This document shows positions 29,378-44,612 of a stretch of DNA of 64,000 nt, in pieces. The first letter of the stretch is position 1; every line of letters begins with the position of its first letter. Made by a program: the position numbers and the translations under genes. A model generated the notes under the pieces. That model searched no databases and had not been told where the DNA came from. It saw only the letters and a list, made by a program, of their open reading frames with translations. The DNA comes from Octopus vulgaris. Taxonomy: Eukaryota. The stretch is taken from positions 29,016,001-29,080,000 of the forward strand of contig OX597815.1 of the NCBI GenBank assembly GCA_951406725.2, given 5' to 3'.

Positions 29378-29989
29378 CATATATGTATGTCATTATTCAG
29401 CTTTATTTCAAGATTTCTTGCCACTAGAGAAAGAGCCGGTTTCTAACCTAGATTCAAGGTTCCATTGGAATTTCAACAACAGGTGTATGTATGTATGTAT
29501 GTATGTATGTATGTATGTATATTTGTAGATTTGTATGTTTTGTTTTATGTATGTCTTCTCATGCATATAGTTGCATATCTAGACATGCTCGTATATACTT
29601 AAATGATAAACTTCTGGAAAGTTTTACAGATTTTTACAGTCCCAGTGATGACTTGGATCTGTAGTCTTCGAGACAGCTTTCTCCTTTCTAGTTTTGAGAA
29701 GCCTAATTTCCCAAGATTAGCATTTAAGCAATGTCTTACATATCCCAGTTCCCCAATAATTACAGGTATAAACCTGAACTTGTAATCTGGATAGAGTAAC
29801 TAGATTTCTGAATTGTTCAGCATAGGTATTCTCTTTTTCATTGATCTTCAGAATTTTTATGTTAACATCTGCTGGGCAGCTGATTTCCGCAACTGTACAC
29901 ATGTATGCATGTATGTATGTATGTATGTATGTATGTATGTATGTATGTATGTATGTATGTATGTATGTATGTATGTATGTATGTATGTA

Positions 29990-30315
29990 CGACTCAAGAG
30001 TCATGTTCGTAGTCATAAAGCAAGACAGATGAGTGACAACCTGGCCACTGGTGGTTGTGTTACACACCATACTAATCATATCTATCAGGCATGTGGAAGA
30101 GAGTGTAATTCGGCAGGAGGACTTAAACGACATGCAAAGATACATGAAGCCCAGTTACAACTATAGCCAGCTATTGCCGGTAAAGGTTTTAGCTGCCAAT
30201 TCTGTACAAGACATTGTAGATCTTTGGCTGGGCTAAAAAGTCACATTCGATCACAGCACCAATAACAGTTAAGCTTCGTACAATGGCCATACTCGATAAC
30301 GAGGGGGTAGCCATC

Positions 30316-30316
<1 letters not shown>
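29990..30316 (+). mobile_element. RTE-like LINE 3' end with tandem C2H2 zinc fingers
   Basis: Translates LKSHVRSH; YQACGRECNSAGGLKRHAKIH; FSCQFCTRHCRSLAGLKSHIRSQH (one internal stop). Short 3'UTR with a CTCG-ATAA-CGAG stem; (ATGT)n on both sides. Confidence 0.7.
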
Positions 30317-30348
<32 letters not shown>

Positions 30349-30452
30349 TGTATGTATGTATGTATGTACGTGTGCGTGTGTGTGTTAAATAAAATGAGAC
30401 AACAAAGCCAAGGCTGTGTGGAATTTTTACGACATTTATTCAGATAAATTTA

Positions 30453-30500
30453 GTCTTACAGCTGTTTCTGGGATATTAGGGATATTCCTTCATCAGAGAC
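30453..30500 (-). ncRNA. Type I minimal hammerhead ribozyme motif
   Basis: Minus strand: GUCU-CUGAUGA-A-GGAAUA-loop-UAUCCC-A-GAAA-CAGCUG-UA-AGAC. Confidence 0.75.
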
Positions 30501-30714
30501 GATATGAGAGAGTTAACTAGAGGGAAATAGTAGAGTTCAGTATAAGGAGTGATTTTGGAAAAGTATAGATGTAGGATGTATAAAGGGAAATAAAAGAATT
30601 TTTTTTTTTACTTTTGTTCTCTTATTTCCCTTTATACTTCCTACATCTATCCTTTTCCAAAATAACTCCTTATATTGAACTCTACTATTTCCCTCTAGTT
30701 AACTCTCTCATATC

Positions 30715-30762
30715 GTCTCTGATGAAGGGATACTCCTAATATCCCAGAAACAGCTGTAAGAC
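30715..30762 (+). ncRNA. Type I minimal hammerhead ribozyme motif
   Basis: Stem I GUCU/AGAC, core CUGAUGA, stem II GGGAUA/UAUCCC, GAAA, palindromic minimal stem III ACAGCUGU, GUA cleavage triplet. Confidence 0.8.
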
Positions 30763-31324
30763 TAACTCTTTCTTTATAAATTCCACACTACCTTGGCCTT
30801 GTTGTTTTATTTCATTTAACTTATGCATGCTCACATAAGACCTGCATTAGATTCCTTACTCGTATTATTATCAAACCGAGAGTCTAACTACAGTCCTTCC
30901 GTAGCCCTTACATAGCCTTGCTTGCCATCTTGGGTCTTCTGGATACCAGTACCTCTCATATATATATATATATATATAATACGTTAGTTTTTACGTCGTA
31001 CATGATGTGTGTGGAAAATGTTTGCCTGTTTATTTCTATCTCACTCAACATTATCTACACTGGAATAATTCAAATGAAATATTTCAAAAAGGAAAATGGA
31101 ATCAAACGTAATTCTAAAATTCAGCTTGTCTGAAACCATATCGTCATTCAAATATCAGGACAAGCCCTGTGTCACGGGTTTGTATGCATATTTGTGTGTG
31201 CGCGTATGTGAATGTATGCGTGTGTAATAACGTTTAAAGACATGAAGAACCTGTGCTTAATACTACTACTACAACCACTAACACCTAACATCTCTAAGAC
31301 TACTACTAATAATAATAATTGTAC

Positions 31325-31525
31325 TAATAATTCTGGTTTCAAATTTTGGCATAAGACCAGCATGTTTAGGGGAGGAGTTAAGTCGATTACATCGACCCTA
31401 CTGCGTAACTACTACTTATTTCATCGACCCTGAAAGGATGAAAGGCAAAGTCGACGTCGGCGGAATTTCAACGATGGTCGAAATACCGCTGTGGGCGAAA
31501 TACCGCTAAGCATTTCCTCCAGCGA
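31325..31525 (-). mobile_element. SINE family B short-tail copy (internally deleted)
   Basis: AGTCGATTACATCGACCC...GAAAGGATGAAAGGCAAAGTCGAC...GAAATACCGCTAAGCATTT. Confidence 0.8.
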
Positions 31526-31527
31526 AT

Positions 31528-31842
<315 letters not shown>

Positions 31843-32067
31843 CGCAGCAAATTTAATTTTTATTCGTAGATTTGAAAGAAATCTGGATAAGCCCTTTTCT
31901 AAAAAGTCTTAACATCTGCAGCTGGTTACATCATAGAGTTGCAGCCTAAACTAATTCTTAATAATCCACTAAATGAAGACAAATGTTTCTCTAAAAATAT
32001 TTCTAAATAAAATTACAATAAAAGGAAATATAATGTGCGGGTGAGGAGGTGAGTGTATATCTGTATA

Positions 32068-44526: not shown

Positions 44527-44612
44527 GTAGATTTCCCGTACGCGTAGGACTCGAACCCACATCTCTCAGTTTACGCGACCGAGTGTGCTACCGATTACAC
44601 TACCGAATCTAC
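44527..44612 (-). ncRNA. tRNA-like Pol III cassette (not a canonical tRNA)
   Basis: TAGTGTAATCGGTAGCAC D-arm/A box; CTCGG/CTGAG stem with 9-nt loop; GTGGG-TTCGAGT-CCTAC T-arm/B box; outer GTAGATT/AATCTAC pairing; followed by TTT. Confidence 0.65.

Follow-up and report, generated by a model that had tools for sequence, protein, structure and literature searches.

Two 5'-truncated copies of a hammerhead-bearing repeat joined head to head in Octopus vulgaris: a probable insertion of the Penelope type

What is a palindrome of more than 400 nucleotides with a hammerhead-type ribozyme motif in each arm, and how did it come to lie in a microsatellite of the octopus genome? This question is raised by a stretch of 64,000 nucleotides of Octopus vulgaris (GenBank assembly GCA_951406725.2, contig OX597815.1, positions 29,016,001 to 29,080,000 of the forward strand), referred to here as the window, in which a preliminary description had noted a compact palindrome with two outward-facing hammerhead ribozymes. 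We find that the palindrome consists of two copies of a ~369-nt element, each truncated at its 5' end and set head to head, which were most likely made in one insertion event through reverse transcription in trans by a Penelope-like element (PLE). Its parts, in window coordinates, are as follows. Identities of the arms were measured against a natural full-length 369-nt copy from locus L017, which serves as the reference, and both arms were also aligned with solo copies.

30316..30383, no strand: (TATG)n(TG)n microsatellite, abutting the 3' end of the left arm
30384..30599, minus strand: left arm, 5'-truncated element copy, reference positions 154-369, 89.8% identity to the L017 copy
30600..30616, no strand: head-to-head junction, T-rich, without homology to the element; other palindromic copies join at other positions
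30605..30820, plus strand: right arm, 5'-truncated element copy, reference positions 143-369, 85.0% identity to the L017 copy
30821..30960, plus strand: ext, a tail-like 3' extension of 140 nt, on the right arm only; 81% identity to the ext of L018
30961..30978, no strand: (TA)n microsatellite, abutting the end of ext; L012, L015 and L020 share the ext end followed by (TA)n or (CA)n

A repeat search of the window recovered two inverted-repeat arms at 30434-30598 and 30617-30781 (165 nt each, 92% complementary, with an 18-nt spacer between them) and an outer, weaker inverted pair at 30367-30429 / 30775-30837 (78%). When the interval 30384-30820 (437 nt) was aligned to its own reverse complement, it was self-complementary at 83%, which agrees well with the ~435-bp inverted repeat described before; the divergence from arm to arm is 8-17%. 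The absence of a meaningful open reading frame (ORF) was also confirmed, as all the frames of at least 70 aa in the palindrome region run through flanking microsatellite. Read on the minus strand, the left arm terminates in ...TTTATTTAAC and abuts a (CA)n(CATA)n microsatellite, and ext on the other side terminates in ...CTCTCA, followed by (TA)n. The (TATG)n(TG)n tract at 30316..30383 is likely the insertion target.

To which kind of repeat do the arms belong? Both derive from an interspersed repeat of ~369 nt that has no coding capacity, and both have lost its 5' part. A search of the 2.8-Gb genome gave 2873 first-look candidates, and most of those that were scored are single ~216-nt arm matches at 88-90% identity. 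Across 135 distinct arms, the 5' starts span positions 1 to 324, with ~19 arms beginning at position 1 and clusters near positions 141-155 and 311-324, two AT-rich spots. Arms that start at 254-256 are mostly not truncations but show where homology to sister families begins. The 3' end is constant in this set, reading ...TTTATTTAAC and then (AC)n or (AT)n, and solo copies likewise end in (AC)n or (AT)n. The combination of a variable 5' end and a fixed, tailed 3' end therefore indicates reverse transcription of a sense-strand RNA from its 3' end.

The truncation and junction points were also seen to gather at AT-rich, partly self-complementary stretches (CATATAT..., TTTATAAAT), the junction in the window lying at 30599-30617. 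This clustering, drawn from a sample that is partly biased as some loci were picked for their likeness to the window palindrome, points to microhomology, either of the element with TA-rich targets or of one cDNA with the other.

The arrangement of the copies was then read from 53 distinct sites sampled via the ribozyme motif alone, by taking the first 30 loci from each of two motif searches (one for exact copies of a 44-nt ribozyme stretch, the other for intact core flanks around a variable helix II) and merging the duplicates. Head-to-head pairs were found at 17 of these sites and solo copies at 33; two sites held direct neighbours, one of them weak, one was ambiguous (25-34-nt matches), and none was clearly tail-to-tail. 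The wider arm set contains 36 head-to-head pairs, as compared with only 2 cases of tail-to-tail neighbours (L072 and L027). The count of palindromic copies proposed at the outset did not favor a compact palindrome as the unit: junction positions differ from pair to pair, which led us to reject the copying of the palindrome as one piece and shows that palindromes formed repeatedly, each built anew at insertion, and not from one master palindrome.

The extension adds an asymmetry to these pairs. It was found on exactly one arm in 26 of the 36 pairs and on both arms in none; it went undetected in the other 10, although in six of these (L003, L005, L007, L009, L010 and L011) the alignment reveals a diverged ext at one side. 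The window copy fits this pattern, with a left arm that meets (TATG)n(TG)n and a right arm that runs into ext and then (TA)n. We also considered ext as an independent short interspersed element (SINE) that served as the target, and rejected this since 27 of the 29 genomic loci retrieved with ext alone carry it directly 3' of the element end.

These observations bear on the idea that the palindrome itself is the functional unit, either as a foldback or miniature inverted-repeat (MITE-type) DNA transposon or as a hairpin-RNA gene producing microRNA (miRNA) or siRNA precursors. A long near-perfect hairpin is indeed predicted here, and Rfam returned sub-threshold matches to long plant miRNA hairpins (MIR8643, for one, scored 48.6 bits where the gathering score is 135). 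All of these matches are, however, far below the gathering scores and of a kind that fits any long hairpin, and the miRNA-family identity was rejected on this ground. The arms do not differ from other copies of a unit found mostly by itself, their junctions vary, and at the outer ends one finds the 3' ends of a retroelement, with microsatellite tails, rather than conserved terminal inverted repeats with target-site duplications. We regard this explanation as very improbable.

Could a long interspersed element (LINE) have mobilised the repeat instead? The element would then be SINE-like and carry the hammerhead as a mere passenger, and either twin priming or template switching would account for its inverted dimers. 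Elements that depend on LINEs can likewise show truncation at the 5' end and microsatellites at the 3' end. Just upstream (29804-30262) lies the remnant of a LINE-like ORF with its (TATG)n tail, a reverse transcriptase (RT) C-terminal fragment that is LINE-type by its motif, though without a Pfam match, lies between two copies in L083, and no matching PLE was found in the 34 loci inspected. Twin priming of the L1 type, however, inverts the upstream segment of one copy and does not produce two arms that each have their own 3' end and tail. Rfam found no tRNA, 5S or 7SL head at the element. The presence of head-to-head pairs at about a third of the sites, together with a strictly one-sided tail and a minimal hammerhead, is moreover the combination published for PLEs (PMC3846280, PMC4209133 and PMC8557442). 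Mobilisation by a LINE thus appears unlikely.

The upstream region deserves a description of its own. On the plus strand, 29804-30262 holds frames ending in '...GLKRHAKIH' and '...GLKSHIRSQH', each followed by (TATG)n, with microsatellites at 29900-29990 and 30316-30383, and the palindrome is located at the end of the (TATG)n tail that follows these frames. The frame endings are C2H2-like, and by this motif the frames look like decayed LINE 3' ends with microsatellite tails; Pfam gave no match.

The second part of the question concerns the ribozyme. The motifs, and the elements of the better one, are the following.

30453..30500, minus strand: left-arm motif of the hammerhead type, its core boxes identical to those of the right arm; the cut is predicted between 30457 and 30456
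30715..30762, plus strand: right-arm hammerhead-type motif, read from the sequence; the sole descriptor match in the window
30715-30718 / 30759-30762, plus strand: right-arm helix I, GTCT / AGAC, 4 bp
30719-30725, plus strand: right-arm core box CTGATGA, then one A
30727-30732 / 30740-30745, plus strand: right-arm helix II, GGGATA / TATCCC, 6 bp with a 7-nt loop
30747-30750, plus strand: right-arm GAAA box, with one A preceding it after helix II
30750-30757, plus strand: right-arm helix III strand ACAGCTGT, palindromic
30758, plus strand: right-arm A17; predicted cut between 30758 and 30759

All 11 invariant core bases are present and the three helices follow in the correct order and register; both arms have CTGATGA, GAAA, an A...T pair that closes the helix and, where the cut is predicted, GTA, as expected for the invariant core of a type I hammerhead. 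Each sense ribozyme reads away from the center of the palindrome, as had been proposed, and a cut after GUA at 30758 is correctly placed as a predicted site. The claim that each arm has the two cores, stems I and II and a self-complementary stem III stands for the presence of all these parts, but must be amended for the left arm, where helix II contains a mismatch. The loose descriptor accepted the right-arm motif and rejected the left one, and the computed energies of the hammerhead fold are -7.3 kcal/mol and +0.3 kcal/mol, respectively. The core-proximal pair of the right arm is A.A. Between two free ribozyme RNAs, cofolding predicts an 8-bp intermolecular ACAGCUGU helix III. As the descriptor matched once in the window and four times in 200 first-order resamples of it, a single motif is weak evidence by itself.

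Much more comes from the family. The 44-nt ribozyme stretch has 65 exact genomic copies and the core flanks with variable helix II have 1662, against none for the reversed control in either case. The 1662 copies split into several families that differ in the loops and lengths of helix II. Members of one of these (L116, L120, L132 and L135) match the reference copy solely at positions 251-301, which is the ribozyme, and some other families align to it from position 254 onward. Because of this excess over the control, and because the ribozyme module alone is common to separate families, the family data show that the hammerhead-type motif is not there by chance. The source elements retain the ribozyme module while the surrounding sequence changes, since both the DNA matches between families and the borders in RNA reads stop at the edges of the ribozyme. 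The CTGATGA and GAAA boxes were invariant in 39 of 39 aligned members, some of which had been selected for intact boxes.

The sister families were noteworthy in other respects. L116, L120, L132, L135 and L130/131 form a separate ~230-nt family in which an insert makes helix II longer and itself pairs into a perfect inner helix of 8 bp (ATATCCCA/TGGGATAT), and this family also occurs as head-to-head pairs (L120 and L130/131). The core-proximal 1x1 loop, A.A in the window, is A.G, U.U, C.A, A-U or U-A in sister families. In an older subfamily (L008, L009 and L011), 4 of 8 arms read CTGATAA, a change of G8 to A that should abolish the hammerhead; this may be a subfamily trait or independent decay.

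A mechanism can be proposed from these elements. A TA/CA-rich microsatellite would be broken, and on either side of the break a PLE reverse transcriptase/GIY-YIG endonuclease would copy the sense-strand RNA of the element, starting at the RNA's 3' end; the two incomplete cDNAs would then be joined at their 5' ends. In source elements, multi-copy or read-through transcripts would be the substrate of the hammerhead, which would act probably weakly and as a dimer via the palindromic ACAGCUGU helix III. Several features of the motif argue for a weak ribozyme activity. The element at this locus is likely an inert scar of an old insertion which, if transcribed, would fold into a ~210-bp hairpin hiding both ribozymes.

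This hairpin is predicted for either transcript (-289.4 kcal/mol, against an average of -88.7 for shuffles; z -37.7). In the predicted fold, the single sense ribozyme of each transcript pairs with its own antisense copy, which is transcribed first. The suggestion that the hairpin competes with ribozyme folding is thus sound as a prediction, with a near-perfect ~210-bp fold covering each ribozyme. Judging from the models, it is unlikely that the intermolecular ACAGCUGU helix would compete with the hairpin inside the palindrome.

To see how such copies appear in RNA, raw reads from three runs were aligned at 85% likeness. None was at least 99% alike to the locus, so the reads reflect other copies of the family and not the expression, editing or ends of this one. 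They peak on 30709-30762, with ~23-58 reads per orientation in those two bins and mostly fewer than 26 in the neighbours. Many carry unrelated sequence before 30714/15 and after 30762/63, which are the outer edges of helix I. Opposite-strand joints between 30497 and 30635 were seen in 18 reads over the three runs, and other head-to-head copies are therefore present in RNA. As to the circular junctions that it had been suggested to look for, no skip or circular joint in these family-level reads from three runs fits the excision of a unit.

A number of results weigh against the proposed origin or against an active hammerhead, and they are taken together here. Concerning the motif, hammerhead identity rests on the match to the consensus and on conservation. 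Helix II of the left arm (GGAATA/TATCCC) has a G-to-A change that leaves one A.C mismatch and weakens the helix. The covariance-model scan that had been recommended gave no match to the Rfam hammerhead families at E<=10, with either 601 nt or 91 nt around the locus. Among the 39 aligned members, none of the 15 helix pairs showed a compensatory change, and the core-adjacent position is Watson-Crick in 4 of the 39. Paired cells amount to 87.7% in this alignment, which is not above shuffles and again concerns members of which some were picked because their boxes are intact. As the sequence of the helices is itself conserved, this result speaks neither for nor against a hammerhead. Concerning cleavage, RNA ends do not pile up at the cut site 30758/59 in the three-run reads, which cross it uncut, and only 1 of the 135 genomic arms starts within 1 nt of it. 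Direct tandems, needed for unit-length processing, account for 2 of the 53 sites. Concerning the insertion machinery, ext is 140 nt long as compared with a published PLE tail of 30-40 nt; no PLE that shares sequence with the element was found among 34 inspected loci, the CTGANGA...GAAA motif was absent from the pseudo-long terminal repeats (pLTRs) of these loci, and a tblastn search with a 781-aa PLE protein over 113 ribozyme loci returned PLE-like ORF fragments that were few and inconsistently placed.

Taken at their strongest, the points on the motif would make it a chance look-alike, without ribozyme ancestry or activity. The lack of an Rfam match and of covariation, the A.A next to the core, the four loose-descriptor matches in 200 resampled windows and the lack of any sign of cleavage in reads or copy ends all lean this way. 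Chance, however, would hardly assemble the complete invariant core with three helices in register, nor give 1662 copies with intact core flanks where the reversed control gives none. The motif is also the only segment common to distinct families, with borders at the helix I strands in DNA and RNA alike, and its fine features agree with the published PLE minimal hammerheads (PMC4209133). A look-alike is in our opinion scarcely credible.

The points on cleavage bear on another explanation, namely that of a non-LTR retrozyme, in which tandem transcripts are cut by the hammerheads into unit RNAs that circularise, the circle being the transposition intermediate. In favor of it, the repeat is AT-rich and non-coding, has a hammerhead-type motif of type I and measures ~370 nt, within the metazoan range of 170-400 nt (PMC7229834), and a 2026 preprint argues for an origin of animal retrozymes from PLE pLTRs (10.64898/2026.07.22.740005). 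The copies nonetheless run from position 1 to 369 or to the ext end with microsatellite tails, and are not permuted around the cut site, where a single arm of the 135 begins; direct tandems are rare in the sample, one of the two being weak. Each transcript of a palindrome contains one sense ribozyme, so no unit could be excised from it. A retrozyme origin is therefore improbable. The earlier view that the motif marks PLEs or retrozymes is supported for its first half, the motif fitting the PLE-type minimal type I hammerhead (PMC4209133), but the element is not a retrozyme in the strict sense.

As to the machinery, the genome contains 6136 GIY-YIG PLE candidates, many with intact 781-aa frames, and those inspected were the 30 best GIY-YIG loci plus four complete 781-aa copies. 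The sole exception to the lack of shared sequence was a weak (69%) antisense match to ext in L097. Rfam gave only microsatellite-driven miRNA-like matches on 20 PLE loci, and Pfam found nothing in the ORFs between paired copies except a sub-threshold PX match. We infer PLE mobilisation from the architecture of the insertions, where head-to-head pairs, a one-sided tail, 5' truncation and microsatellite ends are all published PLE hallmarks. A rarer ribozyme-bearing PLE may exist, given that 34 of the 6136 candidate loci were inspected.

Two further observations come from this search. L144 (130-5372, G000:C16) and L145-L147 represent a young PLE family with a 781-aa ORF encoding an RT plus a GIY-YIG domain at the C terminus. 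Its 456-bp pLTRs are 99.3% alike, its copies are 93-98% alike and end in (TA)n, and the 3' untranslated region has repeated TGACGTC-containing units; a regex search of this family found no CTGANGA...GAAA hammerhead motif, and its pLTRs have no homology to the element. A canonical-looking hammerhead with CTGAAGA, a GGGG...CCCC helix II, GAAA and a longer helix III was picked up by the descriptor on the minus strand of L095 and L145 (~1472 on the reverse complement of L145). From the end of the ORF in one 781-aa PLE copy to this motif, which is on the opposite strand, the distance is 1.2-1.5 kb in the downstream direction; the sister copy L144 lacks it.

Elsewhere in the window, a very long (AAT)n/(ACT)n trinucleotide microsatellite of ~370 bp occupies 31525-31900. 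The only Rfam match at the gathering threshold in the whole window is a weak tRNA-like one at 44544-44602 on the minus strand (29.6 bits against a gathering score of 29, model positions 8-63), which may represent a pseudogene or else the head of a SINE derived from a tRNA. In the literature mentioning both hammerhead ribozyme and octopus, no description of such ribozymes in octopus was found at the title and abstract level.

The locus taken alone matters little, as it is one old scar of a known retroelement kind. The family is of more interest: it shows the PLE insertion signature (head-to-head, one-tailed, microsatellite-targeted) in ORF-free units of 200-500 bp, which are compact and convenient for studying how PLE reverse transcriptases make inverted copies. 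Its sister families provide natural variants of the core-adjacent base (A.A, A.G, U.U, A-U and U-A), and its palindromes are predicted sources of long double-stranded RNA (dsRNA) in a genome for which abundant RNA editing has been reported. One could go further and propose that several otherwise unrelated protein-free families are linked only by a hammerhead module with a free 1x1 core-proximal loop, a form of the core that the published PLE descriptor lacks, that they insert as one-tailed mirror doublets recording an obligatory asymmetry of PLE integration (one cDNA primed at the true 3' end of the RNA and the other at an internal TA-rich site), and that they seed hundreds of long-hairpin dsRNA sources for A-to-I editing. 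We consider this broader proposal unlikely.

How does the locus compare with known systems? The closest relatives of the motif are the PLE minimal hammerheads of Cervera and De la Pena 2014 (PMC4209133), in which helix I has 4-5 bp, helix II has 6-8 bp, a base lies between positions 9 and 10.1, positions 15.2-16.2 with loop 3 are palindromic, and activity in vitro is low and dimer-dependent. The window motif shares the type I order, the CUGAUGA and GAAA boxes, a helix I of 4 bp, a helix II of 6 bp, the extra base after A9 and a palindromic 15.2-16.2 plus loop 3 (CAGCUG; min-HHR/small-palindromic-helix-III variants). The genomic picture is similar as well: the copies in that study are mostly single and truncated, some being paired on opposite strands ~100-700 bp apart, and the octopus element occurs in thousands of dispersed copies, mostly single, with some opposite-strand pairs 100-700 bp apart. 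The published set, by contrast, has a highly conserved G10.1-C11.1 and families 'full of covariations.' The window motif has an additional unpaired base on the 3' side of helix II, a feature that we did not encounter in the published descriptions and which creates a core-proximal 1x1 loop in place of a bulge and G10.1-C11.1; a G-C pair closes helix II with one extra base between it and G12, and this site taken as 10.1/11.1 is the one that is seldom Watson-Crick in the family. The element also differs from these families in the lack of covariation and of a full PLE carrying the motif among the 34 PLE loci.

The mode of insertion is best compared with that of endonuclease-positive (EN+) PLEs. 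Inverted PLE copies are most often head-to-head and the targets are AT-rich simple DNA (Arkhipova et al. 2013, PMC3846280). According to Craig et al. 2021 (PMC8557442), 5' truncation is strong, a second copy that is also 5'-truncated lies inverted so that inverted repeats result, a tail of 30-40 bp is often confined to one end, insertion is biased toward microsatellites, and hammerheads occur in pLTRs. The octopus element agrees with both accounts in its 5' truncation, its inverted copy placed head to head, an extension that only one of the inverted copies has at its 3' end and simple AT-rich or microsatellite sites, the last being noted here without genome-background statistics. It departs from EN+ PLEs in being a ~369-nt unit without an ORF, in its ~140-nt tail and in the rarity of direct partial tandems (pLTRs) in the sample. 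The non-LTR retrozymes of metazoans (Cervera and De la Pena 2020, PMC7229834) resemble it as small AT-rich non-coding repeats with type I hammerheads, dimer-dependent ribozymes being described in those of amphibians; they are, however, defined there by tandem arrays giving circular RNAs, whereas the octopus copies are dispersed, solo or head-to-head. Set against these systems, the locus is best read as a further example of a known retroelement kind, a PLE-type double insertion of a non-autonomous, ribozyme-bearing element.

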